The notes under the pieces: generated by a model | What the model was told of the DNA's origin: nothing | Database searches by the model: none | The model's input: the letters and a program-made list of their open reading frames with translations, nothing else | Shown here: one piece after another, positions 10,328 to 54,831 of the stretch | Layout: every line of letters begins with the position of its first letter | How positions within the stretch are numbered: the stretch's first letter is position 1 | DNA from: Candidatus Iainarchaeum sp. | GTDB taxonomy: Archaea; B1Sed10-29; WALL01; JAGHAM01 | DNA: 64,000 nucleotides | Direction of reading: 5' to 3' | Assembly: GCA_021161465.1 (NCBI GenBank) | Contig: JAGHAM010000004.1 | Location: forward strand, 3,035 to 67,034 | Made by a program: the position numbers and the translations under genes

Positions 10328-10734
10328 GCTGGGGTGGCGGAAGTTCACGAGCAGGCAAGCTCGAGAAGTTCAGTTCACGAGCAGGCAAGCTCGAGAAACG
10401 CAATCCGGTTCAACGCGCCGGCCTCGAGTAGCCGCAAAATCGGCTAGCGCTTTAGGCGTCTCACGCTCCGCGTGAGAGCACCAGGTGTGGCCGTAAAATC
10501 GGTTCACGCGAACCGTAAAATCGGTTCACGCTTTGGGTGTTGCGCTACGCGCAAGCACCAGGCGGATGATTAAGGACTTAGTCTAAACCTAAGTGAAAAA
10601 TAACAGGTGCTAGACTTTGTCCAAGTGCCTTACGCTATATGTAAGGCAGGCATCCTGAAAGCCGGTGGGCGCAAGCCCGTGCAGGTTCAAACTGTTTCGT
10701 CTCCGTATGAAACAGGAAATTCCTGCCCCCAGCG
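10328..10734 (+). tRNA. tRNA-Ser(CGA) candidate interrupted by three introns (D-loop ~62 nt, anticodon 37/38 ~231 nt, T-loop 59/60 ~29 nt)
   Basis: Perfect 7-bp acceptor GCTGGGG/CCCCAGC with G73. U8-G9 and a 3-bp D-stem GCG/CGC with a GGTTCAA D-loop remnant. Anticodon stem CCGGC/GCCGG, loop CTCGAG|A. Type-II variable arm TGGGCGCAAGCCCGT (GNRA hairpin). T-arm GCAGG-TTCAAA[intron]T-CCTGC. Hand fold only. Confidence 0.45.
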
Positions 10735-10775
10735 TACCCTTCAACAAACATGTATACACTATAGTAACTATATAA

Positions 10776-11018
10776 TTGGCTATAGTTAAGGTGTTCTGTA
10801 TGGCGACGACTATACAGATAAGCGAAAAACTTAGAGAGGAATTAGCAGCTAGGAAGCTCTACGAAAAAGAGAGTTATGAAGAGGTCATCAATGACCTGCT
10901 TGAGGACACTATGGAACTTTCAGAAGAAACCAAAAGAGAGATAGAGCAAGCGAGGAAGGAGATAAAAGAAGGAAAAGTTTACGCCATGGCAGAGATTAAA
11001 AAGGAGCTAGGGTTGTAA
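10776..11018 (+). CDS. small antitoxin-like protein (80 aa)
   Basis: Small acidic coiled protein immediately upstream of a RelE/ParE-like reading frame (10 nt gap). Confidence 0.4.
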   Translation: MAIVKVFCMATTIQISEKLREELAARKLYEKESYEEVINDLLEDTMELSEETKREIEQARKEIKEGKVYAMAEIKKELGL

Positions 11019-11027
11019 ATGTATGAG

Positions 11028-11147
11028 ATAATTTTCTCTGCCACCTCAAGAAAGAAATTGAAAAAGTTGGATAAGAACACTCAATCTAGAATCTTATCCT
11101 CTTTGGAGCGAATAAGAATTAGACCGGAATTTTTGTAAGACGCTTGG
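11028..11147 (+). pseudogene. truncated RelE/ParE-family toxin remnant (39 codons)
   Basis: Translation 'MYEIIFSATSRKKLKKLDKNTQSRILSSLERIRIRPEFL*' matches the N-terminal third of RelE/ParE toxins (..I.FS..A.K.LKKLDK..Q.RI...LE.L). Premature stop; not in the ORF track (<60 aa). Confidence 0.4.
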
Positions 11148-11468
11148 TCTTGAAGTTTCTCCAAAAGCAAAGCAATCACAAACCATGCCACTCTTGTTTC
11201 CATCGTTGTAATACCTAACATAAAATCCCTTTGGGCTTAAGTCATATGCTACAAATATATGTGGCTTCCAGACAATCTTGGGTGTAGGCTTGACTTTTGG
11301 GCTACTGGCTTCATGGGTTATATTTGCATCGTATACTTTGCCAACAACTTTTTCTGTAATTCCCTAGAGTGTTCACATCGAGAATGCTTGACAGACCCGC
11401 TACTAGGACAAACAAAATTAGGATAGTCAGAGCACCAATCACCAGAAACTGCTTTTTGCCTACCAGCA
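11094..11468 (-). pseudogene. frameshifted small secreted protein gene (candidate)
   Basis: Minus-strand ATG at 11468 gives a signal-peptide-like 'MLVGKKQFLVIGALTILILFVLVAGLSS..', which terminates after an A5 run. An 89-codon continuation without a start codon follows in another frame ('..VYDANITHEASSPKVKPTPKIVWKPHIFVAYD..'). Confidence 0.3.
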
Positions 11469-11511
11469 TAAACCTTTAGTAGACACCTCAATAATAAGTT
11501 TTCTCTCCATC

Positions 11512-12896: not shown

Positions 12897-15587
12897 ATGC
12901 CAAAAAACAAGAAGGATGTCATGGAACTTCTTAGAAAGAAACCAGACGAGTACTGGAAAGTGGACCTATTCGAAGAAAGGGGATTTAAGCGCCAGAAATG
13001 CCCTTCCTGTGGGACCTACTTCTGGAGCATTAACGAGAGGGAGAACTGCAGCAGCCCGCCGTGTGGAGACTACGAGTTCATAGGAAAGCCGCCAACCAAA
13101 AAGAGCTTCGACCTGATTAAGGCTTGGCGCGCGATAGAAAAATTCTTCGTCAAGAATGGCCATACCTCAATAAACCGTTATCCGATAATATGCAGATGGT
13201 TTCCCGGACTTTTCTTCACTGTGGCAAGTATAGTTGATTTCCAGCGCTCTGTTGGCGGGAAGCCAGTTTTTGAGTTTCCAGTTGACCCATTGGTCGTTCC
13301 TCAACCGTGCCTGCGTTTTAATGACATACCAAACATAGGCGTGTCCGGAAGGCATATGAGCAGCTTTACCATGGTTGGACAGCATACAAAGAAATACTGG
13401 AAGGACAGGTGCATTGAGCTCGACTATGAACTAATGACCAAAGTTTTTGGAATCCCAGAAGACAAAATTGTCTTCACTGAGGACATCTGGGTTGGACCAA
13501 GCGCATTTGGGTCATCACTGGAGTATCTGGTGGACGGTCTTGAGCTGGGCACGTCAGTATTTACATCGTTTTGGGGGACTCCTGATAATTTCAAGCCAAT
13601 GGATGAGAAAGTGATTGACATGGGTGCAGGCCTGGAGCGGTTTACCTGGATTTCACAAGGTACCCCAACTATATATGATGCTTCATACGGGCCCGTGATA
13701 GCAAAGCTGAAGAAGACTGTAGACTACGACAAAGAGCTTTTTACCAGGTATTCAAGGTTAAGCGGCAGGATAGATGCAGATAAGATGAACCCGCGGAAGG
13801 CATTTGAGGGGGTTGCAGGCAAGCTTGGTGTTTCAGTAAAAGAATTAGAGACGAGCATAGGACCACTACAGGCTGTGTATGCAATAACAGACCATGCTAA
13901 GGCGCTAACGTTTGCCATAGCGGATTCTGGGTTGCCGAGCAATGTTGGCGGTGGCTATAACCTTCGTGTCCTCTTAAGAAGAGCCTTGAACCTGATAAGC
14001 AAATATAATTTGGATTTCACGCTGAATGATGTTTGTGAGAAACATGCTAAATACCTAAAGCCGGTGTATCCATCCCTTGCAGAGAACCTTGATGAAATAA
14101 ATGAAATCCTTGATGTCGAGAAGAAGAAGTATGAAAGGTCTCTTGACAGGGCCAGGCGGGTCGCAAGGACGATAGTGTCTAAGTCAAGAAAAGTCCCCAA
14201 GGACAGGATGATACAGCTTTATGAGTCTCAGGGGGTCACTCCTGAGTTGCTGAAACAGGTTGCTGAGAGTGAAGGGAAGGACATAGAAATAGCTGAGGAC
14301 TTTTATTCAAGCTTGACTGCAAAACATTCGAAGGATGCTAGCGCTGAGTTCGTTGAGGTCGATGCTCCAAAGACTGTGAACCTGTATTATAGCCAGCCAG
14401 AGGCAAAGGAGTTTACTGCTAAGGTCTTGAAGAATTTCAAATACCAGGGCAAAAACTGGGTCATACTGGACAGGACATTATTCTATGCTGAGAAGGGTGG
14501 CCAGGACCATGACACTGGCTGGCTTGATGGGAAAAGAGTCATAGATGTTCAGGATATTGGTGGGGTTGTTCTTCACCAAGCTGAACCATTACCGGAAGGA
14601 AAAACTGTCAAGGGCCAAATAGATTGGGATAGGCGTATTATCCTTAGAAACCATCACTCTGCAACACACATAATCAACGGTGCGTGCCGCCGTGTGCTTG
14701 GTAACCATATCTGGCAGGCTGGTGCGTGGAAGGGGATAGACAAGGCCCATCTTGATATAACCCACTATGAGAACCTCTCACAGGAGCAGATAGACAGGAT
14801 TGAGAAGCTGGCGAATAAAGTAGTGCAGGAGAATAGACCTGTGACACAGAATCTAATGCCAAGGACAGAGGCTGAGAGCAAATATGGGTTTAGGCTTTAT
14901 CAGGGAGGAGCTGTACCTGCTGCAGAGCTTTACATAGTTGAGGTTAAGGACTGGGATGTTGAAGCTTGTGGGGGGACTCATGTCAGCAGGACCGGCGTTA
15001 TAAAGAAAATAGTGATTTCAGGAACAGAGAAAATCCAGGATGGCATTGTAAGGGTTCATTTCCTAGCTGGTGAACCAGCTTTGGAGTATCTAAAGAAAAT
15101 GGATTCTCTGCTTAAGGAAACTGCAGGCCTGCTTGGTGTTAAGGAGAGTAAAGTTCCAGAATCAGTTAAAAAGCTGTTGAGCAAGTGGAAGTCAAAGCGT
15201 AAGGAGTTTGAGAGGTTTTTGAAGAAGACGGCAGAGGAGAAGTCAAATGATATAAATCCAATTGAGTTAGATGGAGTCAAGGCGTATGTTTCTGTTGTTG
15301 AAGGGGTAGACATGCTTGGTTTAAGGGAGGTCTCCAAAAAGTTAGGCAACGATGACTCGTTTGTTTTCCTTGTAAGCGACAGGGGTTTTGTATTTGCAGC
15401 TGCTGGAAAGAATGTTATAGAGAGAGGCATAAATGCGGGGAAGATTGTTAGGGAAATAACTGGTTCCTATGGAGGAGGGGGTGGAGGACCACCCGAGAAA
15501 GGGGAAGGTATGATAAAGGATAGCACCTCTTTGGAGCAGTTGGTTGATGATGTAAAGGGTAAGCTTAGGAGGGCTTTGAATGGTTAG
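12897..15587 (+). CDS. alaS: alanyl-tRNA synthetase (archaeal type)
   Basis: 896 aa. Archaeal AlaRS N-terminal catalytic region, editing domain HxxxH/CxxxH ('HHSATHIINGACRRVLG', 'ACGGTHV'), and C-terminal DHHA1-like 'GGGGGGP' region. Confidence 0.9.
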   Translation: MPKNKKDVMELLRKKPDEYWKVDLFEERGFKRQKCPSCGTYFWSINERENCSSPPCGDYEFIGKPPTKKSFDLIKAWRAIEKFFVKNGHTSINRYPIICRWFPGLFFTVASIVDFQRSVGGKPVFEFPVDPLVVPQPCLRFNDIPNIGVSGRHMSSFTMVGQHTKKYWKDRCIELDYELMTKVFGIPEDKIVFTEDIWVGPSAFGSSLEYLVDGLELGTSVFTSFWGTPDNFKPMDEKVIDMGAGLERFTWISQGTPTIYDASYGPVIAKLKKTVDYDKELFTRYSRLSGRIDADKMNPRKAFEGVAGKLGVSVKELETSIGPLQAVYAITDHAKALTFAIADSGLPSNVGGGYNLRVLLRRALNLISKYNLDFTLNDVCEKHAKYLKPVYPSLAENLDEINEILDVEKKKYERSLDRARRVARTIVSKSRKVPKDRMIQLYESQGVTPELLKQVAESEGKDIEIAEDFYSSLTAKHSKDASAEFVEVDAPKTVNLYYSQPEAKEFTAKVLKNFKYQGKNWVILDRTLFYAEKGGQDHDTGWLDGKRVIDVQDIGGVVLHQAEPLPEGKTVKGQIDWDRRIILRNHHSATHIINGACRRVLGNHIWQAGAWKGIDKAHLDITHYENLSQEQIDRIEKLANKVVQENRPVTQNLMPRTEAESKYGFRLYQGGAVPAAELYIVEVKDWDVEACGGTHVSRTGVIKKIVISGTEKIQDGIVRVHFLAGEPALEYLKKMDSLLKETAGLLGVKESKVPESVKKLLSKWKSKRKEFERFLKKTAEEKSNDINPIELDGVKAYVSVVEGVDMLGLREVSKKLGNDDSFVFLVSDRGFVFAAAGKNVIERGINAGKIVREITGSYGGGGGGPPEKGEGMIKDSTSLEQLVDDVKGKLRRALNG

Positions 15588-15773: not shown

Positions 15774-18230
15774 TTGATGAAACACAAGATACTTTTTGGT
15801 ATCCTCATAGGACTATCAATCATGTTTTTGGTTGGTTGTGTTGGAGAACAAGGCGCTCCGAGTCACCAGAGCTTGGAGGTTTCTGTTTATGATTCCAACT
15901 CAAGTTCCCCTCTTGCTGGGACTCCTGTCATTCTTTATAATTCCTCCAACAAGGTGATTGCCACTAGTGTTACAGATTCTAGTGGCCATGCCTCGTTCGA
16001 TGTTTCTCCTGGCGACTATTATATCAAAGTAAATACAACAGGGTTCAATGAGAAGAGAAAAAGCGTTTCTATTGGCCCTATAGAAACCACCGTTGTTGAT
16101 GTGGGTGTCAGGAAACTTGGTGAATGCCTCGAGAAGTGGTCTTGCACTGACTGGGGCCCATGCACTAACGGGAAACAAACTCGTATGTGTATGGATGTCA
16201 ACGACTGTAATACAACATATAATAAGCCATCTGAGGAGCAGGCATGCAATTCTTTGGAGTGCTCTGCAAATTCAGAGTGTGATGATGATAACCCGTGCAC
16301 AACTGATAGCTGTACAGATGGCAAGTGTATCTACTCCCCCATAAAGTCATGCACCAGTGGTGATGGTTGTTGCCCATTTGGTTGTTCATATAACAACGAT
16401 AAGGATTGCCCAGAAGCTGACCAGTGTTCAACCAATACAGACTGCAACGACAATAACCCTTGCACTTTTGACAGTTGTGCTGGCTCACCAAAGGTTTGCA
16501 TTCATTCAACCATAATAAGTTGTTCTGACAACGATGATTGTTGCCCATCTGGCTGTAGTTATGTGGATGACAACGATTGCATGCCTGTTGATAAGTGTAA
16601 GCTCGATTCTGACTGCGATGATAATAATGCATGCACAGTGGACACCTGTTCAGGTATCCCAAAGGTTTGCCGTCATTCAACATTAACAGCATGTATTTCT
16701 GGTGATGGTTGTTGCCCAAGCGGTTGTAACCCGGCTGATGACGCTGACTGCAGGGAATGTGAGACAGACGGGAACTGCGATGATGGTAATCCCTGCACTA
16801 ACGACACCTGTGTATCCTGGGTCTGCGAGCACACAGTTTCTAGTGAGGGTTTATCGTGTGGTGAAGGGAAAGTTTGTTGTGGAGGAGAATGCAGGAGGGC
16901 ATGCTCTTCTGCCCAGGATTGTGCTGACTGGTTCGAGGATAACAATGAAAGCTTTGACTCCAACTGTACTGAATTCTCCTGTACCGACCCCGGCAACTGC
17001 TGTTATGCTAATTGCATTATAAGTGTTTCCCCGTGTGGTCCAGAGGACGGATGTTGTCCTTCTAACTGCAATTCTGAGGAGGACCCTGATTGTGAGACTT
17101 GTACTGATGAGTGCGATACTGAAGGCACGACCCAATGCAACGGTAACACCTTGGAGTCCTGCGGTAACTGTGATGGAGATTCCTGCCTTGAATGGTGCAA
17201 TCCTGACGACTGCAGTGACTGCTCCTGCGATTGCGGTAATTACTCCTCTGACCAGGATGAATCAGCGGTAAACTGCAGTGATGGAATAGACAATGACTGT
17301 GATGGCCTAATAGACTGTGATGACGTTGATTGTGTTTCTTATTGCGGTGAGTGTGAGCCTGGAGAAACCAAGGTTTGTGATAACCAGGAGGGAGTTTGTA
17401 AGGGTTCGGAGCAAACCTGCACTCATGAAGGAGACTGGCCCGGCTGTGTCTACACGTCAATTAATGGTTATGAGTCAGCAGAAGCCACCTGTGATGATGG
17501 GCTGGACAATGACTGTGATGGCCTGACTGACTGCGACGACCCTGACTGCAGTAATTCACCGGAATGCCAGGAGGACAGTTCTGTCAACTTTAAGGCGCGT
17601 TGCATAATGACTTATCCACCGGCGGGAGGTAATCAGTGTGATTTCTACTTTGACAATGTTGGAGAAGGTCATGTGCTCGAACCCTTCAAAGTAGATATGA
17701 AGACCAATGGAACTGCCAGACCATGGGGCCTAGGTAGTATTACTGTTAATCTGAAAGATGAAACCGGAGCCGGATGGACAAAACTCTTGAGATTGCCCTT
17801 AAACTCTTCTTACTGGACTGCTGAGGGAATATGCAGCAAAAACTCAGGCATAGAAAAAGTCGCGAAATGTGATTCGAGTGGTGAAGTACTGGAGGAACAT
17901 GTGTGCGGAGAAGGAAACGACTTTTCGGTTGGAATGGAAGACTATTTGAAGATAAAGCTTTCTGTTGACAGCCTAACGCTTTCCATTGAGGACGGTCTGA
18001 TGTATGAGTATGGTGGTTTCTTTGCTGGAGGGTCACAGTCCTTAGATGCTGAGATGGTTATACCAGGTAATTCTTATGTCATGGTAACTTGCGACTGGTT
18101 GGACACAGGCGAACTTCCATTGCTCTTGGAGATGGTTGTGGACCCTGATAACAGAATTTTGGAATCGGATGAAAGTGATAATGTCGATTCACTCTTCTTG
18201 ACAAGCGTAGGACAGACAAATTGCTTTTGA
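15774..18230 (+). CDS. large secreted lipobox protein: Ig-like/CarboxypepD_reg-like N-domain, ~6 Myxococcus-type Cys-rich repeats, MopE-like DNDCDG motifs, CARDB-like C-terminus
   Basis: Signal peptide 'LVGC'. Repeated 'CxDDNPCTxDxCxxGxCxH...CxSGDGCCPxGC...DxDC' modules. 'CSDGIDNDCDGLIDCDD' and 'CDDGLDNDCDGLTDCDD'. C-terminal '...VDPDNRILESDESDN' CARDB-like ending. Real start likely ATG 15777. Confidence 0.7.
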   Translation: MMKHKILFGILIGLSIMFLVGCVGEQGAPSHQSLEVSVYDSNSSSPLAGTPVILYNSSNKVIATSVTDSSGHASFDVSPGDYYIKVNTTGFNEKRKSVSIGPIETTVVDVGVRKLGECLEKWSCTDWGPCTNGKQTRMCMDVNDCNTTYNKPSEEQACNSLECSANSECDDDNPCTTDSCTDGKCIYSPIKSCTSGDGCCPFGCSYNNDKDCPEADQCSTNTDCNDNNPCTFDSCAGSPKVCIHSTIISCSDNDDCCPSGCSYVDDNDCMPVDKCKLDSDCDDNNACTVDTCSGIPKVCRHSTLTACISGDGCCPSGCNPADDADCRECETDGNCDDGNPCTNDTCVSWVCEHTVSSEGLSCGEGKVCCGGECRRACSSAQDCADWFEDNNESFDSNCTEFSCTDPGNCCYANCIISVSPCGPEDGCCPSNCNSEEDPDCETCTDECDTEGTTQCNGNTLESCGNCDGDSCLEWCNPDDCSDCSCDCGNYSSDQDESAVNCSDGIDNDCDGLIDCDDVDCVSYCGECEPGETKVCDNQEGVCKGSEQTCTHEGDWPGCVYTSINGYESAEATCDDGLDNDCDGLTDCDDPDCSNSPECQEDSSVNFKARCIMTYPPAGGNQCDFYFDNVGEGHVLEPFKVDMKTNGTARPWGLGSITVNLKDETGAGWTKLLRLPLNSSYWTAEGICSKNSGIEKVAKCDSSGEVLEEHVCGEGNDFSVGMEDYLKIKLSVDSLTLSIEDGLMYEYGGFFAGGSQSLDAEMVIPGNSYVMVTCDWLDTGELPLLLEMVVDPDNRILESDESDNVDSLFLTSVGQTNCF

Positions 18231-18243
18231 TACCAACTAAACT

Positions 18244-18280: not shown

Positions 18281-21115
18281 GTGTTATCTATGCCAGCCTA
18301 CAAACACGAAAAGGTAGAGTTAAAATGGCAGAAAGAATGGGAAAACGCCGGGCTTAGCCAAGCCGATGCAGATCCAGAGAGAGAAAAGTACTTCTTGATA
18401 TTTGCCTATCCAGGAATCTCGGGCTTCCTTCATGTTGGCCATATGCGAGGCTACTCCTATTCTGACATCATCACTAGGTACAAGCGAATGCGCGGATTCA
18501 ACGTGCTCTTCCCAGCTGGCTTTCACGCCACTGGTATTCACGCTGTGGCGATAGCCGAGAAAATCAAGCGTGGCGATAAAAAATTAATCCAATATTTCAA
18601 GGACAATGGGGTTTCTGATAAGCAGATAGAGAAGTTCAAGGATTACAATGAGGTTGTAAAGTTTTTCTCAAAGGTTTACGTTGACGAGTACTGGAAACGC
18701 TTTGGGTTTCTCATAGACTGGAGGAGGCTTACGAGTACACTGCACCCAGGCTACCATAAGTTCATCCAGTGGCAGTTCAGGAAGCTGATGCAGCAGGGCT
18801 TACTAGTGCAGAAGGAGTACTATGGAGCTTTCTGTCCTCATTGTGGGCCGGTGGCAGTTGATGCAACTGAGACAGACTTGCAGAGGGGCGGAAATGCAGA
18901 GAAACTAGAGTTCACATTGTTGAAGTTCAAGTACGGAGATTCTTACCTAGTGGCTGCAACCTTAAGGCCTGAAACCATCTATGGCCAGACTAACATGTGG
19001 GTAAGGCCGGATATCAACTACGTGAAAGTTGAGGTAGATGGGGAGAAATGGATAGTTAGTGAGGAATGTTCTAAGGCTTTAACCGAGCAGGGAAAGAAAG
19101 TAAAGGTTCTGGAGGAAGTGCCTGGAAAAAGCATGATAGGAAAATACTGCCACGCGCCTGGCATAGATGGGGATATAATCATATTACCTTCTGATTTCCC
19201 CGACCCAAAGATAGGGACGGGCCTTGTTACTAGTGTACCTTCTGATGCACCTTACGATTACATCGCCTTGAAGGACCTACAGGGAAATCCAGGAGAGTGC
19301 AGAAAGTATGGGATTGACCCAGAGAAGGTTAAGGCGATAAAGCTGATACCAATAATCAAGTCCAAGGGCTATGGAGAATTCCCCGCAGAGGAAATTGTTG
19401 AGAGGATGGGTATAAAGAGCCAGCGCGAGACTGAGAAATTAGAGGAGGCTACCAAGGAGATATACAAATTGGGCTACCACACAGGGGTAATGCGCGAGAA
19501 CTGTGGGCCTTACGCAGGTATGCGAGTTGAAGAAGCCAAGGATGCTATGAAGGAGGACCTAATCAAGAAAGGTCTTGCCGACGTGTTCTATGCTTTCTCT
19601 GAGCCCGTGGTGTGCAGGTGTGGGAGAGATGTCGTCATAAGGAAGATAACTGACCAGTGGTTCATAAAATACAGTGATGAGTCTTTAACGGAGAAGTCAA
19701 AGCTGCATGCTGAAGGCATGAACATCTTCCCGGAGGATTACAAGAGGGAGATACCTGCGGTTCTGGATTGGTTCCAGGATAGGCCTTGTGTCAGACAGGG
19801 CTCTTGGCTCGGGACAAAGTTCCCATTCGATGAGAAATGGATTATAGAACCTATTTCAGACTCGACACTTTATCCAGCTTATTATGTTGTTTCTATCTAT
19901 GAGAACAATGGAGTAATCAAGCCAGAGGAGATGACCGAGGAATTCTTCGATTATGTTTTCTTGGGGAAAGGGGAACCAAAGAAACCAATCTGGAAGAGGA
20001 TAAGGGAGGATTTTGAATACTGGTACCCTCTTGATGTAAATTTGGGCGGCAAGGAGCACAAAACCGTTCACTTCCCTGCTTTCCTTATGAACCATGTTGC
20101 TATCCTACCTGGAACCTACTGGCCGAGGGGAATATTCGTGAACTGGTGGGTTTTGGGAAAGGCCGGTTCTAAAATAAGTAAGAGCAAGGGCGGGGCCGAG
20201 GCAATACCCGATATACTTGAAACTTACTCAGCTGACTCTATCAGGCTTTACTATTCTCATGTGGCTTCTCCGTTCCAGGACATCTATTGGGATGCTGACA
20301 CAGCCTTCAAGTACAAGAATGCTCTGGAACGTGCCTATGTAATATGTGAAACCCTCTCTGGACTGAAAGGCGGGAAATCAAGAATAGATAGCTGGCTGGA
20401 ATACAATTTCAATGAAAGCCTGAGGGAAGCAACTGACGCTATGGAGAACTATGACCTGAGAGTCGCCTCCGATGTAATTTTTTATGCCATACCGCGTATC
20501 CTCAACTGGTACCAGAGGAGAGGGGGAGAAAACACTAAGATGCTATCTTGGGTGTTGAGGGATTGGGTCAGATTGATGACTCCCTTCACCCCTCACCTTG
20601 CTGAGGAGATATGGCACTCGGTGCTTGGTGAGAAGAACCTAGTTTCGGTTGAGTCCTGGCCAAAAGCACGCGAGGTAGAAGCTGATGAGAGAGTGAATGA
20701 AGAAGAGGAGCTGCTTAGGGATATCCTAAGCGATACGCGTGATATATTCAAGCTGGTTGGTGGGAAGCCTTCAAAAGTTTTCATCTACACACCAGCTAAA
20801 TGGAAGTGGCAGGTTATTGGGAAGGTTAGGGGTAAAGAACGCGACTTCAAAGCATGCATACAGGCGGTAGCGGCTGACCAGGAGCTAAAGAAGGATGGGC
20901 CACGATTCATTAAGGCGATATTCAAGAAACTTCCTGGCTATTCGAGCAAACCCCAGATAGATGAGTATGATGGCCTAAAGAGCGCTGAGCTATTCCTCTC
21001 CGAGGAGCTTGGAGTTCCTGTAAAGGTTTTCAGAGAGGAGGACCCCAAGAAATACGACCCTACTGGGAAAGCATCTAAAGCGCTACCACTTTACCCTGCA
21101 ATATATGTAGAATAA
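18281..21115 (+). CDS. leuS: leucyl-tRNA synthetase (archaeal/eukaryal type)
   Basis: 944 aa. HIGH motif 'HVGHMRGY', KMSKS motif 'KISKSKG', CP1 editing insertion. Probable true start ATG at 18290. Confidence 0.9.
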   Translation: MLSMPAYKHEKVELKWQKEWENAGLSQADADPEREKYFLIFAYPGISGFLHVGHMRGYSYSDIITRYKRMRGFNVLFPAGFHATGIHAVAIAEKIKRGDKKLIQYFKDNGVSDKQIEKFKDYNEVVKFFSKVYVDEYWKRFGFLIDWRRLTSTLHPGYHKFIQWQFRKLMQQGLLVQKEYYGAFCPHCGPVAVDATETDLQRGGNAEKLEFTLLKFKYGDSYLVAATLRPETIYGQTNMWVRPDINYVKVEVDGEKWIVSEECSKALTEQGKKVKVLEEVPGKSMIGKYCHAPGIDGDIIILPSDFPDPKIGTGLVTSVPSDAPYDYIALKDLQGNPGECRKYGIDPEKVKAIKLIPIIKSKGYGEFPAEEIVERMGIKSQRETEKLEEATKEIYKLGYHTGVMRENCGPYAGMRVEEAKDAMKEDLIKKGLADVFYAFSEPVVCRCGRDVVIRKITDQWFIKYSDESLTEKSKLHAEGMNIFPEDYKREIPAVLDWFQDRPCVRQGSWLGTKFPFDEKWIIEPISDSTLYPAYYVVSIYENNGVIKPEEMTEEFFDYVFLGKGEPKKPIWKRIREDFEYWYPLDVNLGGKEHKTVHFPAFLMNHVAILPGTYWPRGIFVNWWVLGKAGSKISKSKGGAEAIPDILETYSADSIRLYYSHVASPFQDIYWDADTAFKYKNALERAYVICETLSGLKGGKSRIDSWLEYNFNESLREATDAMENYDLRVASDVIFYAIPRILNWYQRRGGENTKMLSWVLRDWVRLMTPFTPHLAEEIWHSVLGEKNLVSVESWPKAREVEADERVNEEEELLRDILSDTRDIFKLVGGKPSKVFIYTPAKWKWQVIGKVRGKERDFKACIQAVAADQELKKDGPRFIKAIFKKLPGYSSKPQIDEYDGLKSAELFLSEELGVPVKVFREEDPKKYDPTGKASKALPLYPAIYVE

Positions 21116-23064: not shown

Positions 23065-23288
23065 TTAAATCCCTTAACTCGGTATGCATTATTAAATATA
23101 CACGTTCTCATTTAAATATCTTTGCAATAATATTACATATGTATTCTTCCATTCTCCTATGCCATACTAAATCAGTCTGCCCGTCTGTCATCACAGCGTT
23201 AGCTCAGAACTCATAGGGCTCATCATCTGATGTTGATTGTCCCATAATTGGAATAAAAGGCTTCTGGTGATGTATCAGTTATTGACAA

Positions 23289-28415: not shown

Positions 28416-28447
28416 ATAGGTTAATTTTTAGAACAAGGTTGTTTAAA

Positions 28448-39647: not shown

Positions 39648-41138
39648 CTAGTTTCCTTTCATTTCCCACAGCTTCGTGCAGATGTCTTGAACCTTGACGC
39701 GCACTTGTTCAGTGGAGTCGCGCATGCGGATTGTTACCGTGTTATCCTTTAAAGTGTCAAAGTCGATGGTTATGCCAAATGGAACCCCTATCTCGTCAGC
39801 TCGCGCGTATCTCCTGCCAATGCTACCCGTGCCATCGTAAAACACTCTGAACCCAACACTACCGAGCATATTGTAAACTTCCCTGGCCTTTTCTGGCAAT
39901 CCGCCCTTATTGACTAGTGGATAGACGCTAACGTCATATGGCGCTACAACACTTGGTAGCTTAAGGTAATTATATTTGTGCTTCTCATCTGGCTCTGCGA
40001 GGGAGTTGTCTAAAATCAAGAAAACATTTCTGTCGACACCAAAAGAAAGTTCCAACACGTGTGGCAGGCACTTTTGGCCATCTCCATAACTAACTTCCAT
40101 AGTTTCGCCAGTGATCTCCTGATGGCCTTTTAAATCGTGGTCAGTCCTATAATGGAACCCAGCAACCTCAACCCACTTGTCTAGTGACGGCGAGTAGCAC
40201 TCAAGGTCGATGTGATACTTGTTGTAAAATGCTTTCTCTTTCTCACTGAGCTGGTGAAGTCTGAAGTTGTCCTTATTGAAACCCATGGACTCCATAAACT
40301 GGCACATTTTGGCTAGATGGAACACAAAGAAAGGTTCCATCCCAAGCTTCTTGGTAGCTTCCTTTCCAGTTATCATTATAGGATTCTTTGTCCCTTCCAG
40401 TAAGATGTTCATCTCCTGTTTCTCCACATGGTCAAAAGGAACTTCTGGTAACTTGTCAGGGTCGAAGAAGATTTGTAGTTCAGCCTGGGTGAATTCCCTG
40501 GCGCGCAACACCCCCTGCCTTGGACTTATCTCATTCCTGTAAGCCCTGCCAACCACGGCAAGGCCTAGGGGCAGCCTCTGGCGGTTCACCCTGAACTCGC
40601 GCTTGAATGCGGCATATGCTCCCTGGGCAGTTTCAGGTCTAAGATATGCAGTAACTATGTCATCTCCAGTTCCAACCTGAACTGGGAACATCAGCGTAAA
40701 AGTTTTTATCTCCTTGAACTCTCCCCCACATTTTGGGCAACGGATGTTGTGCTTTTTTATGAGCTTGCTAAGTTCTTCGGCAGTGACGCCTTCAAAGGTT
40801 TCGTGAAGCACATCCTCAACTATATGGTCGGCCCGCACGCGCTCACCGCATTTAGAACACTCAGCCACCGGGTCGAAGAAATGTTCTAAATGACCACTGC
40901 CCTTAAAAACCTTTTCAGGCATTATGGTGGTTGGTTCTATCTCATGGAAATTGTCGTTTAGAGCAAGGAAAAAAGTTCTCCAGTAGTTCTCCCATCTATG
41001 CTTTATCTCACTCCCAATACTGCCGTAATCATAAAATCCGGATATGTTGCCATGGAATTCACTATTTGGGTAAATTACTCCTCTTTGTAGCAGGATTTTG
41101 TTCAGAAGCTCAATGCGATTTATGTCCTTGTTGGGCAT
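39648..41138 (-). CDS. glyS: glycyl-tRNA synthetase (archaeal/eukaryal alpha2 type)
   Basis: 'FHGNISGFYDYGSIG' class II motif-1 region typical of GlyRS, plus a Zn-ribbon-like CxxC...CxxC insertion. Confidence 0.85.
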   Translation of the reverse strand: MPNKDINRIELLNKILLQRGVIYPNSEFHGNISGFYDYGSIGSEIKHRWENYWRTFFLALNDNFHEIEPTTIMPEKVFKGSGHLEHFFDPVAECSKCGERVRADHIVEDVLHETFEGVTAEELSKLIKKHNIRCPKCGGEFKEIKTFTLMFPVQVGTGDDIVTAYLRPETAQGAYAAFKREFRVNRQRLPLGLAVVGRAYRNEISPRQGVLRAREFTQAELQIFFDPDKLPEVPFDHVEKQEMNILLEGTKNPIMITGKEATKKLGMEPFFVFHLAKMCQFMESMGFNKDNFRLHQLSEKEKAFYNKYHIDLECYSPSLDKWVEVAGFHYRTDHDLKGHQEITGETMEVSYGDGQKCLPHVLELSFGVDRNVFLILDNSLAEPDEKHKYNYLKLPSVVAPYDVSVYPLVNKGGLPEKAREVYNMLGSVGFRVFYDGTGSIGRRYARADEIGVPFGITIDFDTLKDNTVTIRMRDSTEQVRVKVQDICTKLWEMKGN

Positions 41139-47265: not shown

Positions 47266-48126
47266 ATGTTAACAGTGAAAAATATAATGTTGGTATTCAT
47301 GGACTTTAAAAAACTCAGAGAGAAGGCATTTAAGGAAACTATTAATGAAGTTCGCAAGGAGAAGAAAGAAACTGATAACCTTGTTGTCCAGGCTGTTGAG
47401 GCGATAGATGAGCTTGATGATATCACGAATATCATAGTTGAGAGAGTGAAGAACTGGTATGCCTTCCACTACCCAGAGCTTGAAAAGCTCGTGAAGGATC
47501 CTATGCTATACCTGCTTATAATAAAGGAGATTAAATCGAGAGACCAAATGCTCGCTGAAAAACTCGAGAGGTTTGTCGGGCCAGAACGGGCAAAAGCTAT
47601 TGCAGAGAAAGCTGTTGGGTCTATGGGGGCCGAGATTGTAGATAAAGACCTGCAAAGGCTTGTACATCTGGCAGAGCTTGGGATTCATGCAAGACAAGAA
47701 AGGGATGAGTTGGCCGATTACATAGAAGAGAGGACAAAAGAAATCACACCAAACCTTCATGCTATGCTTGGTGGTATGCTTGCTGCAAGGCTTATAGCGA
47801 GAGCAGGTTCACTTGAGCGGCTAGCTAAAATGCCTGCCAGCACCGTGCAGGTACTGGGCGCGGAGAAGGCATTGTTTGCACATCTGCGTAGGGGTGTTCC
47901 TTCTCCAAAGCATGGTTTGATATTCCAGTTCCCACAGATAATCCAGTCCCCAAAGAAGCAGCGTGGGAAGATATCCAGGGCGCTGGCTGGGAAGGTTTCC
48001 ATAGCAGCCAAGGAGGATTTCTTTGGAAATAAGGATATAAGCAAAGAACTAATTCAAAGCTTTGAAAAGCGGGTTGAGGCTATAAAGGAGGGAGCATCAA
48101 AGAAGAAGGGTGGCAAGCATGAATGA
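47266..48126 (+). CDS. Nop5/Nop56-family C/D box snoRNP protein (short archaeal form)
   Basis: Nop domain 'MLGGMLAARLIARAGSLERLAKMPASTVQVLGAEKALF...HGLIFQ'. True start probably the Met at about 47299. Confidence 0.8.
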   Translation: MLTVKNIMLVFMDFKKLREKAFKETINEVRKEKKETDNLVVQAVEAIDELDDITNIIVERVKNWYAFHYPELEKLVKDPMLYLLIIKEIKSRDQMLAEKLERFVGPERAKAIAEKAVGSMGAEIVDKDLQRLVHLAELGIHARQERDELADYIEERTKEITPNLHAMLGGMLAARLIARAGSLERLAKMPASTVQVLGAEKALFAHLRRGVPSPKHGLIFQFPQIIQSPKKQRGKISRALAGKVSIAAKEDFFGNKDISKELIQSFEKRVEAIKEGASKKKGGKHE

Positions 48127-48775
48127 AATCTTTCATAATGTTTTCCGTGAAGGCAACAAACTTTACACAAAGAACTTAGTTCCTGGGCAACGGGTTTACG
48201 GAGAAAAACTTTTGGAAACTGGCCGGGGAGAGCTGAGGGAATGGAACCCAAACAGGTCCAAGCTGGCTGCGGTGATACTAAAGGGCTTGAAAACGTTTCC
48301 ACTCAAGCAAGATTCAAAGGTGCTCTATCTCGGTGCTGCCCAGGGAACCACTGCATCACACGTTAGCGATGTAGTGGACAAAGGTTATGTTATCTGTGTT
48401 GATGTATCCTCTAAGGCTATGGAGGAGCTGATACCTCTGTGCGAATCCCGCCAGAATATGCTTCCGGTTCTTGGAGATGCTAACAGGCCTGGAGAGTATG
48501 CTAAGTATACTCTTGGAATTAATATGATTTATCAGGATGTTGCCCAACCAAACCAAGCTAAAATACTGCTAAAGAACGCTTCACTGCTTGATCCAGGGGA
48601 GTACGCTATCTTATGTATTAAAAGTAGGTCAATAGATGTTGCAGAAGACCCAAAGAAAATCATCAAAAAAGAGTTGGAATCCGTTTCTGATGGTTTTTTT
48701 GTGAGAGAGGTGATTGACCTCGAGCCATACCACATGGACCATGCACTAGCTGTGTGTGAGAAAAAACTTAGTTAG
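48110..48775 (+). CDS. flpA: fibrillarin-like rRNA/tRNA 2'-O-methyltransferase
   Basis: 'VLYLGAAQGTTASHVSDVV' SAM-binding motif of fibrillarin. Start overlaps the Nop5 stop. Confidence 0.85.
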   Translation: MASMNEIFHNVFREGNKLYTKNLVPGQRVYGEKLLETGRGELREWNPNRSKLAAVILKGLKTFPLKQDSKVLYLGAAQGTTASHVSDVVDKGYVICVDVSSKAMEELIPLCESRQNMLPVLGDANRPGEYAKYTLGINMIYQDVAQPNQAKILLKNASLLDPGEYAILCIKSRSIDVAEDPKKIIKKELESVSDGFFVREVIDLEPYHMDHALAVCEKKLS

Positions 48776-49737
48776 GCCAGGTTATAGTCAATTATGCGCT
48801 TCATCATCACGAAGGGCTGTGCTCCACCAATCAAGCTATCACCGATGTAAAAGGAGGGGGCTACTATGGCTCCTTCTTTTATTGCCAGCTGGTAGTCTCC
48901 CTGTACTGTGCTTACCTTTTCCCCGTTTCCAAAGCATGTGTTGAACTCTTCCATATCGAGACCAACCTTCATAGCATAGCTCTTTAAGTCTTCGTCAGAC
49001 AGTGCATCCTTCAAAGATTCTGGATCCCAGTTATCATAAAGCACATCATGATATTCCCAGAATTTACCTTGGTCATAAGCGCATTCTGCTGCCTCTGCTG
49101 CCCTTTCTGACCTAGGGTGTATGCTTGTGAGCGGGAAGTTGATGAATACATATTTTGCCTTGCCAGTGTCAACATAATCTTTTATGATTTTCTTGTAGGT
49201 TGTTCTGTAGAAGTTCCTGCAGTATGCACAGTCGAAATCACCAAATTCAACTATCGTGAGCTTTGCTGACATATTTCCCTTTATGGGCTGTCCATCAAGG
49301 TTTATCTTCGATGGCGACAGTTCAGGTGTCATTAAAACAAAGTATATCTTTTCTATCTTTAGGGTTCTGTCATCCACCCTGACTTCTATAATCTTTAGGC
49401 CTTCGTTTGTTTTAGCTTCATAGTCTACAAGCCATTTGCCATTAGCGAAATTGTATCTGGTATTTTTTATTGAACCGCCGTATCTAAGGCGTGTCAGAGT
49501 ACTTAGCACAAGATGGTTCACATCATTATTTGTCCTTATTGGAAGGATTATGTTGGAAACAGACGAGGAGGGCACATTCATGTTGCATACCCTCTCCTCT
49601 TTTAGCACTTGACTGGTTCCAGCAAGTATGCCAATCATCAGGGTTGCTGAGATAAATACAATTATCAAATACCATGTTCCCGGAGGTATATCCCATGGAC
49701 ATTCTTCGCTCAGCAACTTCTTGAGCTTTTCCATCAT
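48772..49737 (-). CDS. membrane-anchored thioredoxin-fold DsbA-like oxidoreductase
   Basis: 'FGDFDCAYCRNFY' CxxC active site, with an N-terminal TM helix. The ORF-track N-terminal extension to 49818 overlaps the tRNA 3' exon and is probably not translated (start at 'MMEKLKK'). Confidence 0.6.
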   Translation of the reverse strand: MMEKLKKLLSEECPWDIPPGTWYLIIVFISATLMIGILAGTSQVLKEERVCNMNVPSSSVSNIILPIRTNNDVNHLVLSTLTRLRYGGSIKNTRYNFANGKWLVDYEAKTNEGLKIIEVRVDDRTLKIEKIYFVLMTPELSPSKINLDGQPIKGNMSAKLTIVEFGDFDCAYCRNFYRTTYKKIIKDYVDTGKAKYVFINFPLTSIHPRSERAAEAAECAYDQGKFWEYHDVLYDNWDPESLKDALSDEDLKSYAMKVGLDMEEFNTCFGNGEKVSTVQGDYQLAIKEGAIVAPSFYIGDSLIGGAQPFVMMKRIIDYNLA

Positions 49738-49757
49738 GTTATTACTCCATTTGTAGG

Positions 49758-50188
49758 TGGGCGCGAAGGGACTTTCCACCCCAATAGGGGGTTTGAGGCG
49801 CACCAACCTTCCCTGCACACATGGATTTGATAACCTTCTATCTCCATGCAGGTACCCTCTGCAGGGTTAGAGGTTCGTCCAGACCATAAGTCTAAACGTG
49901 TGCACCCTTTTCTTCCTGCGTATCGGGTGGCCTCGTGCCACCCCTGCAGGTTTAGAGATTCGTTCTAGACTGTAGGTCTAGAACGGGTGCAACCCTCCTG
50001 GTGCAACCAATCTTCCTACAATCGGGATACGGATGATATTCCATCCCCATGCAGGTTTAGAAAGGGTGCAACCCTCCTGGTGCAACCAATCTTTCGAACC
50101 CTCGGCCTCAGGTTATCCTCAGCCACGCTGAGTGTACCAGAACGGGCCTTATAAGACCTGCGCTCTGACCTGGCTAAGCTACGCGCCC
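49758..50188 (-). tRNA. tRNA-Ile(UAU)? candidate with anticodon intron (~35 nt) and very long (~320 nt) T-loop 59/60 intron
   Basis: Minus strand: acceptor GGGCGCG/CGCGCCC with A73. UA. Canonical D-arm GCTT-AGCCAGGTCA-GAGC. Anticodon stem CAGGT/ACCTG, loop CTTATA|A. Variable AGGCC. T-arm GAGGG-TTCGAA[intron]T-CCCTT. The intron carries two 28-nt direct repeats. Confidence 0.4.
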
Positions 50189-50296
50189 ACATTTATGGTT
50201 TAGCGCTTTATATATTTAAAACCTACTTTAGTGATTATCTCCTTTATATTCGTTTTACCAGCACTTTTTTAATGTAGTTAATCTTAATTTTCCCCT

Positions 50297-52005: not shown

Positions 52006-52033
52006 TAAAAAACATCACCGGTAAAACAATCTT

Positions 52034-53701
52034 ATGCTTGAGTTTAGAAAGCAGGTAGCTGTTGCCTTGTCAAAGGCCTCTGGCGTTGAAGTCAAGCCCA
52101 GGGAATTGACCATACCACCAAATCCAGAGTTAGGTGACTTATCTTCTAATGTGGCTTTTCAGCTTCCTGGGAACCCGAAGGAAAACTCGGAGAAGATAGC
52201 TGGGAGGATAAAACCGAGAGGGCTTATTTCTAAAGTTGAAACCAAGGGACCTTACATAAACTTCTTTCTAAACTGGGCCGAATTCAATCGATTGACCATA
52301 GCTACTGCACTGAAACACAATTATGGTAAAAACACGGACTACACAGGGAAGACAGCAATGGTTGAATACAGCCAACCAAATCCAAATAAGCCTCAGCATG
52401 TTGGGCATTTGAGAAATAACCTTCTAGGCATGGCAGTTTCAAATATACTGGAAGCTAACGGTTGGGAGGTTGTTAAAGCTAATCTTATAAACGACCGTGG
52501 CATCCACATATGCAAGGCCATGCTTGGATACCTCAAGTGGGGGGAGGGCAAAGAGCCCAATGAAAAGCCAGACCACTTCGTTGCTAAGTTTTACCAGCGC
52601 TTTGTCATGGAGGAGGCTAAGGACCCTGAGCTAACTAAGGAAGCCCAGGAGATGTTGAGGAAGTGGGAAGCAGGTGACCCACAGGTAAGGGCGCTATGGA
52701 GGAAGATAGTAGATTGGGCCTATAAAGGCTGGAACGAGACTTACTCCATGACAGGGACTGAGTTTGACGTTTGGTTCTACGAAAGCGAGACGTATCTGGA
52801 TGGAAAGAGGATTGTTGATAGTGGTTTGAAGAGAGGGGTGTTCAAGAAGGCTGATGATGGGAGTGTTTATGCAGAACTTGAACCAGAGTTGCCGAATAAA
52901 ACAGTGCTCCGTTCAGATGGAACTTCTATTTACATAACTAACGATTTAGCTCTTGCAAAGAGAAAGTTTGAGAGCTATCCGTTGGATAAGAGTATTTATG
53001 TGATTGGCTCCGCTCAAAATACTTATATGAAACAGCTTTTCAGGATTCTAAAGCTGCTTGGTTTTGAGTGGTCGGATAAGTGTTGTCATTTATCCTATGG
53101 TATGGTTTCATTGCCAGAAGGGAAGATGTCTTCAAGGCTTGGCAGGATGATTTACGCTGATGACTTGCTGGATGAAGTTATCAACCTGGCGGAGAAGGAA
53201 GCCGAGAAAAAGGGTATCAGCGAGGATGTTAAGGAGACGGCTAAGCACGTTGGGCTGGCTGCTATCAAATTTAACTTTCTGAAGGTTAACCATAGGAAAG
53301 ACATATTGTTTGAGAAGGAAAAGGCAGTTTCGTTTGAGGGAGATACCGGGCCTTATGTGCAGTATGCCCATGCTAGGTGCAATCAAATAATTGAAAAACT
53401 TGGCAGCTATGGAAAGCCAAATTACTCCAAGCTGACAACACTCCACGAGCGCGAACTCGTGAAGAAGATAAGTGAGTTCCCTGAGATTGTGAGGGAGTGT
53501 GGGGAAACTCTTGAGACACACCCTATAGCTAATTATCTGCTTGAGCTGACGCACACGTTCTCTGATTTCTATGCTAATTGCCCCGTGATACAGTCCAGAG
53601 GCTCTTTAAGGGCAGCTCGTGCTGATTTGGTGAAAGCAACTAAGGGAGTTCTATCTACTGGATTAAGCTTGCTTGGTATAAAACCATTGGAGAAGATGTG
53701 A
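52034..53701 (+). CDS. argS: arginyl-tRNA synthetase
   Basis: 'YSQPNPNKPQHVGHLRN' HIGH region. C-terminal DALR anticodon-binding-like region. 555 aa. Confidence 0.85.
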   Translation: MLEFRKQVAVALSKASGVEVKPRELTIPPNPELGDLSSNVAFQLPGNPKENSEKIAGRIKPRGLISKVETKGPYINFFLNWAEFNRLTIATALKHNYGKNTDYTGKTAMVEYSQPNPNKPQHVGHLRNNLLGMAVSNILEANGWEVVKANLINDRGIHICKAMLGYLKWGEGKEPNEKPDHFVAKFYQRFVMEEAKDPELTKEAQEMLRKWEAGDPQVRALWRKIVDWAYKGWNETYSMTGTEFDVWFYESETYLDGKRIVDSGLKRGVFKKADDGSVYAELEPELPNKTVLRSDGTSIYITNDLALAKRKFESYPLDKSIYVIGSAQNTYMKQLFRILKLLGFEWSDKCCHLSYGMVSLPEGKMSSRLGRMIYADDLLDEVINLAEKEAEKKGISEDVKETAKHVGLAAIKFNFLKVNHRKDILFEKEKAVSFEGDTGPYVQYAHARCNQIIEKLGSYGKPNYSKLTTLHERELVKKISEFPEIVRECGETLETHPIANYLLELTHTFSDFYANCPVIQSRGSLRAARADLVKATKGVLSTGLSLLGIKPLEKM

Positions 53702-54634
53702 GTGCCAAAGCTGTCCGATTTAGGTGAACGTGAGGTCATCAGAAGGGTTCGGAGACTTCTGAAGAGGCCAGGCATATTGACTCAGCTTGATGAGGATGCT
53801 GAGATATTCAAAACAAAAGGCTTTTTAGCGGTGACAACGGAGTTGCATGTTGCAGGCACGCACTTTAGAAGTTCAAGTCCTGTTAGTGTAGGAAAGCGCG
53901 TTGTAGTTTCAACACTCACTGACCTGCTGGCCAAGGGCGCGCTACCACTTTATTTCATGACTAGCATCGGCTTGTCTAGTGATACCGACTATGAGTTTGT
54001 GAGAAAGTTATACAAGTCTATGTCCGACTCTTTGAAAGAATTTAACGCGTTTTTAATCGGTGGTGACACAGTTGAATCCAACCAGTTGGTCATCGGCACC
54101 ACAGCGATAGGCAGGGTGAAAGGGAAACCCTTGTTGAGAAAAAATGCCCGGGTGGGGGATAAGGTGGTGGTTACAGGCGAGATAGGTAACGGCGCGCTTG
54201 GCTATCTGCTCTTGAAAAAAGGGCTGGCAGGACCCAGGAAGTTTGTGAGGGCACAGCTTGAGCCGAGTGTGGACTTTAGGCTCTGCAAACGTTTGATGTC
54301 CAGGGCTAATGCTGGCATAGACATCTCAGACGGTCTCGCTTTTCAACTGGCAGAGGTTGCGAAACAATCGGAGAAGAGAATAACTATTTTCGAGGATGAA
54401 TTACCAGTGGACTCACACTTGCCAAAGCTTTGCAAAGAAAACAACTTCAACTTGGACGAGGTGCTTTTTCACATAGGAGATGATTACCAGGTGCTTTACA
54501 CGATGCCTAACCCACCGAAGGGCGCGCTTGTTATAGGAGAAGTTGAGCGCGGGAGTGGATTGTTCATAAAAAGAAAGACAGGTGAAATCCAGCCGTTGAA
54601 TGGTGAAGGCTGGGAGAGTTTCAAGCGTCATTGA
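53702..54634 (+). CDS. thiL: thiamine-monophosphate kinase-like (AIR synthase-related family)
   Basis: 'LSDLGEREVIRRV', 'DDAEI', 'VTTELHVAGTHF', 'STLTDLLAKGALPL', 'IGGDTV', 'VGDKVVVTGEIG' fit the ThiL pattern. Start abuts the argS stop. Confidence 0.6.
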   Translation: MPKLSDLGEREVIRRVRRLLKRPGILTQLDEDAEIFKTKGFLAVTTELHVAGTHFRSSSPVSVGKRVVVSTLTDLLAKGALPLYFMTSIGLSSDTDYEFVRKLYKSMSDSLKEFNAFLIGGDTVESNQLVIGTTAIGRVKGKPLLRKNARVGDKVVVTGEIGNGALGYLLLKKGLAGPRKFVRAQLEPSVDFRLCKRLMSRANAGIDISDGLAFQLAEVAKQSEKRITIFEDELPVDSHLPKLCKENNFNLDEVLFHIGDDYQVLYTMPNPPKGALVIGEVERGSGLFIKRKTGEIQPLNGEGWESFKRH

Positions 54635-54664
54635 TTTAAACTACATATACTAAAATTTTAGGGC

Positions 54665-54831
54665 GGACGCGTAGCCTAGCCAGGATTGTTCCGTGGCAAC
54701 AGCTCATGGAATCCTGATAGGGCACCGGCCTTCTAAGCCGGCTATCGGGGGTTCAAAATAAGGAGGAGGGACACGTTCCCTCCTCCCTTATAAGCCCTTC
54801 TCCTTTGCGAGTGAGTTTCCCTCCGCGTCCG
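54665..54831 (+). tRNA. tRNA-Arg(UCU) with D-loop intron (~32 nt) and T-loop 59/60 intron (~60 nt)
   Basis: Acceptor GGACGCG/CGCGTCC with G73. U8 A9. D-stem GCCT/GGGC, D-loop AGCCAGGA[intron]TA. Anticodon stem CCGGC/GCCGG, loop CTTCTAA. Variable CTATC. T-arm GGGGG-TTCAAA[intron with 12-bp hairpin]T-CCCTC. Confidence 0.6.

Follow-up and report, generated by a model that had tools for sequence, protein, structure and literature searches.

Four multiply interrupted tRNA genes sharing a T-loop intron in a DPANN archaeon

The DPANN archaeon ARMAN-2 (Candidatus Micrarchaeum acidiphilum) has 56% of its tRNA genes disrupted, with a 59/60 intron of the hBH type in tRNA-Cys and a pair of introns at 53/54 and 59/60 in tRNA-Pro, and its endonuclease, a three-unit epsilon2 enzyme, is able to cut relaxed motifs (Fujishima et al. 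2011, PMC3239211). Other DPANN lineages have alpha4 enzymes with an extra loop, which are associated with more tRNA disruption (PMC5829648). Multi-intron tRNAs and large-scale intron transposition have also been reported for the Thermoproteales (Sugahara et al. 2008; Fujishima et al. 2010, as summarized in PMC4090602 and PMC4033280), and in those summaries the similarity of the introns is read as recent spread. Here we describe four tRNA genes, for Ser(CGA), His(GUG), Ile(UAU) and Arg(UCU), in a 64,000-nucleotide stretch of contig JAGHAM010000004.1 of Candidatus Iainarchaeum sp. (the window). Each gene has an intron between positions 59 and 60 of the T-loop and at least one more elsewhere. The best explanation, which we hold to be very probable, is that these are functional genes of a DPANN archaeon, transcribed from TATA-type promoters of their own and carrying two or three protein-spliced introns of the bulge-helix-bulge (BHB) kind apiece.

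The window resembles the ARMAN-2 case in its DPANN host, in non-canonical introns that include the 59/60 site, in relaxed BHB motifs, in the disruption of many tRNAs, and in genes that standard tools miss. It differs in lineage, as its ArgRS is 51-53% identical to those of the closest named relatives, Candidatus Micrarchaeota, and in having the 59/60 intron in all four genes. Its introns are also much longer (231 and 321 nt) and repeat-rich, and the epsilon2 enzyme is established for ARMAN-2, whereas the enzyme type is presumptive here. The Thermoproteales, as far as the above summaries describe them, are alike in having up to three introns per gene and similar introns across tRNA species at canonical sites and at non-canonical ones. 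They are Crenarchaeota with an (alpha-beta)2 enzyme, whereas the intron family of the window has a conserved 5' hairpin module of its own, with examples found only at 37/38 and 59/60.

ARAGORN called no tRNA gene in the window in either default or intron mode, Rfam gave no tRNA match in the window at the gathering score or at E ≤ 10, and the 461-nt stretches around the Ser and Ile genes gave no Rfam tRNA match at E ≤ 1. A scan for a 5-bp stem followed by TTCRA, with the complement of the stem no more than 700 nt downstream and a complementary 7-bp acceptor closed by U8, returned four interrupted loci, the ends of which coincide exactly with the coordinates in an earlier note on this DNA. When the introns are removed in silico, ARAGORN calls a canonical cloverleaf in all four cases (Ser(cga), His(gtg), Ile(tat) and Arg(tct)), and the spliced products carry the expected identity features: in His, G-1 is encoded and faces C73, and Ser has a long variable arm of 15 nt. 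Scans of the window for D-loops, T-loops and GC-rich windows gave no fifth candidate. The nine introns, two or three per gene, are located as follows (an arrow marks a cut; helix lengths are in base pairs, and central-helix fractions are pairs formed out of four).

10328-10734, plus strand: tRNA-Ser(CGA), three introns; from the scan and from ARAGORN on the spliced form
10328-10342, 10404-~10427/8, ~10659/60-10691 and 10721-10734, plus strand: exons of tRNA-Ser
10343-10403, plus strand: Ser D-loop intron at ~15/16, 61 nt; best BHB-compatible cut, central 3/4, inner 3 bp
~10428-10658, plus strand: Ser anticodon-loop intron at 36/37 or 37/38, 231 nt; from sequence parse and constrained fold, boundary ±1 nt
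10692-10720, plus strand: Ser T-loop intron at 59/60, 29 nt; hBHBh'-like, outer 5, central 3/4, inner 8 bp, 3' bulge AT↓T
28415-28199, minus strand: tRNA-His(GUG) with G-1/C73, two introns; from the scan and from ARAGORN on the spliced form
28415-28376, 28288-28268 and 28212-28199, minus strand: exons of tRNA-His
28375-28289, minus strand: His intron at 37/38, 87 nt; strict BHB, outer 7, central 4/4 (CUGU/GCAG), inner 4
28267-28213, minus strand: His T-loop intron at 59/60, 55 nt; central 3/4, outer 5 bp
50188-49758, minus strand: tRNA-Ile(UAU), two introns; from the scan and from ARAGORN on the spliced form
50188-50150, 50114-50093 and 49771-49758, minus strand: exons of tRNA-Ile
50149-50115, minus strand: Ile intron at 37/38, 35 nt; outer 5, central 3/4, inner 4
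50092-49772, minus strand: Ile T-loop intron at 59/60, 321 nt; central 3/4, outer 5 bp
54665-54831, plus strand: tRNA-Arg(UCU), two introns; from the scan and from ARAGORN on the spliced form
54665-54686, 54719-54757 and 54818-54831, plus strand: exons of tRNA-Arg
54687-54718, plus strand: Arg D-loop intron, 32 nt; strict BHB, central 4/4 (CAGG/CCUG), inner 8 bp, bulges AU↓U and AU↓A
54758-54817, plus strand: Arg T-loop intron at 59/60, 60 nt; outer 5, central 4/4 (UUCA/UGAG), 3' bulge UU↓U

The scan and the ARAGORN calls on spliced sequences confirm what the earlier note had read from the letters, namely a 59/60 intron common to all four genes, flanked by TTCRAA and the T-stem, together with further introns in the D-loop (Ser, Arg) and in the anticodon loop (Ser, His, Ile); the gene that it had entered as a questionable Ile is tRNA-Ile(UAU). 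It had also expected default tRNA annotation to fail, which is the case for ARAGORN and Rfam, and spurious open reading frame (ORF) calls at each region, which we find at two of the four. The His locus is covered by a 163-aa ORF that starts at TTG and has no Pfam match, and the 5' extension of a thioredoxin ORF runs over the 3' exon of the Ile gene. At the Ser locus all ORFs are ≤60 aa, and the Arg locus is without any ORF of ≥30 aa.

We scored all boundaries against the 3-4-3 BHB geometry, with each cut placed after the second base of a bulge. In every window gene the T-loop reads TTCRAA, then the intron, then T and the 3' strand of the T-stem; U60 was placed 3' of the cut because intron-less orthologues read TTCRAAT. 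The 5-bp T-stem forms the outer helix of the 59/60 junction, and T54-R57 (UUCR) pair with a four-base stretch of the intron (NGRA) that ends two nucleotides short of the 3' cut, which gives a central helix of three or four of four pairs in the window genes and in their relatives. The pairing bases are GGAA in Ser, His and Ile (three pairs, with an R57-G mismatch) and UGAG in Arg (four pairs). The relatives all form four pairs, with UGAA in locus L011, which was scored, and, as read by eye, CGAA in L010, CGGA in L019 and UGAA in L021. The bulges at this site are NN↓U60 on the 3' side and A58 A59↓N on the 5' side.

Across the nine introns, the strict four-pair central helix is present in the Arg D-loop, Arg T-loop and His 37/38 introns, and three pairs are formed in the Ser, His and Ile T-loop introns, the Ile 37/38 intron and the Ser D-loop intron, whose ~15/16 cut yields a D-arm that ARAGORN accepts. 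The inner helix of the Ser T-loop intron is contiguous over 8 bp, so that this junction is hBHBh'-like, and the T-loop introns of His, Ile and Arg are relaxed forms with a local hairpin directly after the 5' cut and a branch. Altogether, eight introns have junctions that form a BHB or a recognized relaxed version of it (hBH, HBh', BHL), the exception being the anticodon-loop intron of Ser, in which no clean motif was seen. Several junctions are relaxed and not strict BHB, in keeping with the earlier note, which had proposed an endonuclease of relaxed specificity. The short central helix of BHB motifs usually does not show in minimum-free-energy folds; both unconstrained and constrained folds missed it here, and they were counted neither for nor against.

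The geometry at 59/60 is that of the canonical archaeal 37/38 intron, because both arms consist of a 5-bp stem and a 7-nt loop that is cut between loop bases 6 and 7. The canonical BHB intron likewise has its first four loop bases paired to the 3' end of the intron, the same two 3-nt bulges, and the cut after loop base 6, and the His and Ile genes of the window hold canonical 37/38 introns as well. The 59/60 site is distinct in lying in the T-arm and in that most copies have a local hairpin and branch in place of a contiguous inner helix.

These features suggest to us how the genes may be processed. Transcription of each gene would start at a promoter of its own, and all junctions of the folded precursor would take the form of a BHB or a relaxed BHB. 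At the T-loop, the T-stem would act as the outer helix and UUCR at 54-57 would pair with the intron's NGRA, so that the 3-nt bulge NN↓U60 remains; the 5' cut would fall after A58-A59, with the hairpin immediately downstream. A tolerant archaeal splicing endonuclease would cut both bulges. RtcB is the ligase that joins exons in archaeal tRNA splicing, and it would join them here. An intron ending in NGRA-NN should fit any tRNA T-loop unadapted, whereas an anticodon-loop intron must match each loop. The 59/60 site may be hit in all four genes, and the intron family found in at least five tRNA species, because UUCR is nearly invariant. The family with the 5' hairpin module would have spread between 37/38 and 59/60 and among tRNA species.

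Comparison with syntenic loci of relatives supports the reality of the genes. Exons are 93-95% identical to the orthologues of close relatives, and compensatory changes are found on both sides of the acceptor and T stems, whose two strands lie hundreds of nucleotides from each other before splicing; among the 231 pair cells of the stem comparison, a single one is a non-pair. The Ile orthologues in L010 and L011 have acceptor-stem pairs altered on both strands, introns at 37/38 and 59/60 as in the window, and a conserved 5' part of the 37/38 intron. For tRNA-Arg(UCU), the two introns of the window become one in L010 (at 59/60; ArgRS 64% identical) and none in L012-L014 (ArgRS 53-57%). In L017 and L018 (LeuRS 70-72% identical) the His gene holds the 37/38 intron only and its T-loop is intact. 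T-loop introns are gained and lost among these relatives at fixed sites. A syntenic tRNA-Ser was not found in L017 or L018, and the comparative support for this gene comes from the identical strain L015, an independent assembly from another sample in which the gene, with all its repeats, is base-for-base identical; a further locus, L016, differs from the window by one mismatch. The L015 contig starts at window position 10333, so this contig of the same strain breaks 5 nt inside tRNA-Ser. Repeat-rich introns may fragment assemblies at tRNA loci.

Upstream of the genes, archaeal TATA boxes are expected at -30 to -32. Three of the four genes have a TTTAAA box in this position, a motif with a frequency of 0.56 per kb in the window, and the Ser gene has TTTTTTTAAT at ~-35 to -26.

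28442-28447, minus strand: TTTAAA box at -32 of tRNA-His
50215-50220, minus strand: TTTAAA box at -32 of tRNA-Ile
54635-54640, plus strand: TTTAAA box at -30 of tRNA-Arg

The host can be placed from its synthetases. The window LeuRS is 100% identical to MCD6414134.1, from a metagenome-assembled genome (MAG) labeled Candidatus Diapherotrites archaeon, and a search of a genome-contig collection with ArgRS gave matches of only 27-32% identity and thus did not recover this lineage. Because the relatives of LeuRS and ArgRS (Diapherotrites and Micrarchaeota) are both DPANN, we assign the host to this group, which bears out the DPANN half of the earlier note's comparison with Thermoproteales and DPANN; the Nop5 and fibrillarin genes and a C/D small RNA (sRNA)-like match in the window are likewise those of an archaeon. 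A broad-specificity endonuclease is presumably encoded by this host. As a query for it we used most of ARMAN-2 EndA, rebuilt from alignments to PDB 4fz2, and obtained 1416 epsilon2 homologues, the best 120 of which are mostly 380-395 aa long. None of these best 120 is encoded on the relatives' contigs of 1.17 Mb and 1.08 Mb. The endonuclease domains PF01974 and PF02778 were absent from the 30 window ORFs scanned and from the gene tables of the protein-anchored loci L010-L018.

Several points weigh against four functional, spliced genes. The sequence read consists of the window and short loci, and intron-less copies may exist elsewhere in the genome; excision and exon ligation are deduced from sequence. 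The 231-nt Ser anticodon-loop intron has no clean BHB by boundary scoring or constrained folding, and its boundary is uncertain. Three T-loop introns have three of four central pairs, owing to the R57-G mismatch, and no contiguous inner helix, and would therefore rely on a tolerant enzyme, whereas the best 120 of the 1416 epsilon2 homologues all come from other Micrarchaeota and none is tied to this lineage. Some of these points would also suit decaying tRNA pseudogenes that were disrupted by insertions while functional intron-less copies persist elsewhere, as would the richness of the long inserts in repeats. We nevertheless consider decay very unlikely: every stem is intact once spliced, the exons are under purifying selection with compensatory changes while the introns diverge, the insertions sit exactly at BHB-compatible sites, the promoter boxes are kept, and the syntenic orthologues of relatives are intron-bearing or intron-less versions of the same genes. 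That the interruptions are repeat-induced chimeras of assembly is scarcely credible. The source is a MAG, the introns hold direct repeats, and L015 begins just inside the Ser gene; yet that same contig, from a different sample and assembly, has the Ser gene and its repeats base for base, L016 agrees with the window at all positions except one, and relatives from other samples share the architecture at syntenic genes.

A further alternative concerns the two longest inserts, the 321 nt of Ile and the 231 nt of Ser, which might be tandem or nested introns removed stepwise, or might separate transcribed pieces that are joined in trans. By eye, the Ile insert consists of about four units, each ending in GGAAG or GAAAG; these endings are like GGAAAG↓U, the true 3' end, and would be able to pair with T-loop UUC, and a 44-nt direct repeat confirms two of the units. 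BHB-like mini-motifs lie inside both inserts, and the Ser anticodon-loop insert lacks a clean outer BHB. We regard either version as unlikely, given that a strict-BHB scan inside the inserts returned dozens of matches at a stringency that yields many by chance, and so does not discriminate, that no TTTAAA-type box was seen upstream of the short 3' exons (by eye, with no formal scan), and that the exons are collinear on one strand within 431 nt, like those of ordinary introns. Split or permuted tRNA genes were rejected, as the exons of all four genes are collinear on one strand within 167-431 nt. Group I and group II introns were rejected for inserts of 29-321 nt with no Rfam match even at E ≤ 1 on short stretches; no Rfam family was found inside the long Ser anticodon-loop and Ile T-loop introns. 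A C/D-box sRNA in the Ser intron was also discarded, because the C-box-like GGAUGAUU and the 3' CUGA are wrongly spaced and there is no Rfam match.

Several of the introns belong to a single sequence family. The nine introns contain 13 triloop hairpins with at least four Watson-Crick pairs, compared with 3.8 ± 2.0 in 1000 dinucleotide shuffles, none of which reached 13. Six of the 13 have UGC loops, against 0.12 expected, although these six are three duplicated pairs. The recurring GCA/UGC triloop hairpins of the earlier note thus hold up, and its GCA loop is the UGC loop of the two minus-strand genes read on the plus strand. The unit that underlies these hairpins is a module, AAGA(A)GGGGN-loop-NCCCCUUUCUAAACC, placed 0-1 nt past the 5' splice site. 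Introns of the 37/38 site as well as the 59/60 site open with it, and its occurrence extends to at least five tRNA species and several genomes. In the His gene the starts of the 37/38 and 59/60 introns are 96% identical over 28 nt, and a direct-repeat search places the two copies as follows.

28347-28375, minus strand: His module copy at 37/38
28240-28268, minus strand: His module copy at 59/60

The same level of identity (96% over 28 nt) is found between the modules of the T-loop introns of Arg and Ile in L010. In L017 and L018 the 37/38 intron of His has the module too, diverged copies lie inside the Ile T-loop intron of the window, and a metagenome scan for a T-loop followed by the module found it, in another sample, at 59/60 of tRNA-Arg(CCU) (L019) and of tRNA-Leu(GAG) (L021). 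Such similarity of intron sequence across tRNA species and positions is that of a transposing intron family. Ten copies of the module form the same 7-9-bp hairpin, in which the apical pairs (C-G, U-A, G-C) and the loops of 3-6 nt vary; the folds were compared singly, as a MAFFT alignment was out of structural register for copies with 4-nt loops. The L019 gene (543-739, plus strand, JGI metagenome Ga0255391) combines a long anticodon-loop intron with the 59/60 intron of this family, and ARAGORN called no tRNA on its contig. A further hit of the metagenome scan, L020, was discarded as a chance match with no tRNA context. In L012, directly upstream of ArgRS (9792-9960, plus strand), there is an ARAGORN call of tRNA-Ser(gct) whose 77-nt intron is oddly placed; the sequence looks like another multi-intron tRNA that was mis-parsed.

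The long introns are built in part of internal repeats, which came from the direct-repeat search and were missed by Tandem Repeats Finder. The D-loop intron of Ser has a perfect 26-nt direct repeat (10342-10367 and 10372-10397), its anticodon-loop intron has a 19-nt hairpin unit in three copies (10432-10450, 10491-10509 and 10513-10531) and a 28-nt unit, and the 44-nt direct repeat of the Ile T-loop intron (49971-50014 and 50050-50093, 93% identity) is accompanied by shorter repeats. These internal direct repeats suggest that the long introns grew by duplication. For the His gene, the simplest account is that the gene's own 37/38 intron was copied to give the T-loop intron, and we infer the direction from L017 and L018, whose His genes hold the module at 37/38 only. 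With the move, GCAG at the 3' end of the intron, the pairing partner of CUGU in the anticodon loop, would have given way to GGAA, the pairing partner of T-loop UUC.

A bolder possibility, which we put forward tentatively and think more doubtful than probable, is that the module introns are an actively mobile cassette that copies itself into position 6/7 of 7-nt hairpin loops whose first four bases pair, so that, UUCR being universal, T-loops in this DPANN clade would be colonized one after another and the introns would then grow by tandem duplication to more than 300 nt. If so, the His gene would record one such jump, from its 37/38 site to its 59/60 site, and the clade would be tractable for the unsolved question of how archaeal tRNA introns are gained, for example by endonuclease/ligase reverse splicing followed by fixation in DNA. 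Abundant excised introns might in that case be circular RNAs that are stable and functional in their own right.

Four aminoacyl-tRNA synthetase genes are found in the 64 kb, interspersed among the four tRNA genes.

12897-15587: AlaRS
18281-21115: LeuRS
39648-41138: class II synthetase with HGTP anticodon domain
52034-53701: ArgRS

The tRNA-Arg(UCU) gene lies ~1 kb downstream of ArgRS, a pairing that is kept in four of the five ArgRS-anchored relatives (it was not seen in L011). Genes for Nop5 (PF01798) and fibrillarin (PF01269) at 47266-48775 (plus strand) adjoin tRNA-Ile, in the same layout as in L010 and L011. The thioredoxin/DsbA-like ORF (48772-49818, minus strand) has a mechanical call that extends 5' over the tRNA-Ile 3' exon; its Pfam domain begins at residue 176, and the start is more likely the ATG at ~49737, just downstream of the tRNA-Ile end. 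In a gap between two ORFs, 23170-23230 (minus strand) gives sub-threshold matches to archaeal C/D-box sRNA families (sR12, 30.1 bits, E = 0.022) and has clear boxes C, D', C' and D (AUGAUGA...CUGA...UGAUGA...CUGA), and it is probably a real C/D guide RNA. Two paralogous-looking proteins of 818 and 992 aa (15774-18230 and 24666-27644, plus strand), each with an N-terminal CarboxypepD_reg/SpaA-like domain and no other Pfam match, are probably cell-surface proteins.

The anticodon UAU of tRNA-Ile is conserved in the orthologues of L010 (1878-1712) and L011 (1894-1734). The usual archaeal tRNA for AUA is a tRNA-Ile with the anticodon CAU, modified with agmatidine; tRNA-Ile(UAU) is known from Nanoarchaeum and Korarchaeum, both of which lack TiaS. 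The gene hints at the same strategy of AUA decoding in the host of the window.

BHB introns at 59/60, three introns in one gene, relaxed motifs, the failure of gene finders and the spread of intron families are all already described. The present case newly adds another DPANN lineage, a defined family of introns of which examples were found at two equivalent sites only, a dated copy event within one gene whose direction we infer, and unusually long, repeat-rich introns. The tRNA sets of DPANN MAGs look badly incomplete without tools that allow for multiple and non-canonical introns; in this window all four genes were missed by ARAGORN and Rfam. The clade offers a comparative series in which the same syntenic genes have zero, one or two introns, by which intron gains can be dated, and the occurrence of one module at both sites, 37/38 and 59/60, explains in simple structural terms why the T-loop could serve as a universal landing site. 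Our results extend the picture drawn from ARMAN-2 and the Thermoproteales to another DPANN lineage and do not overturn current knowledge.

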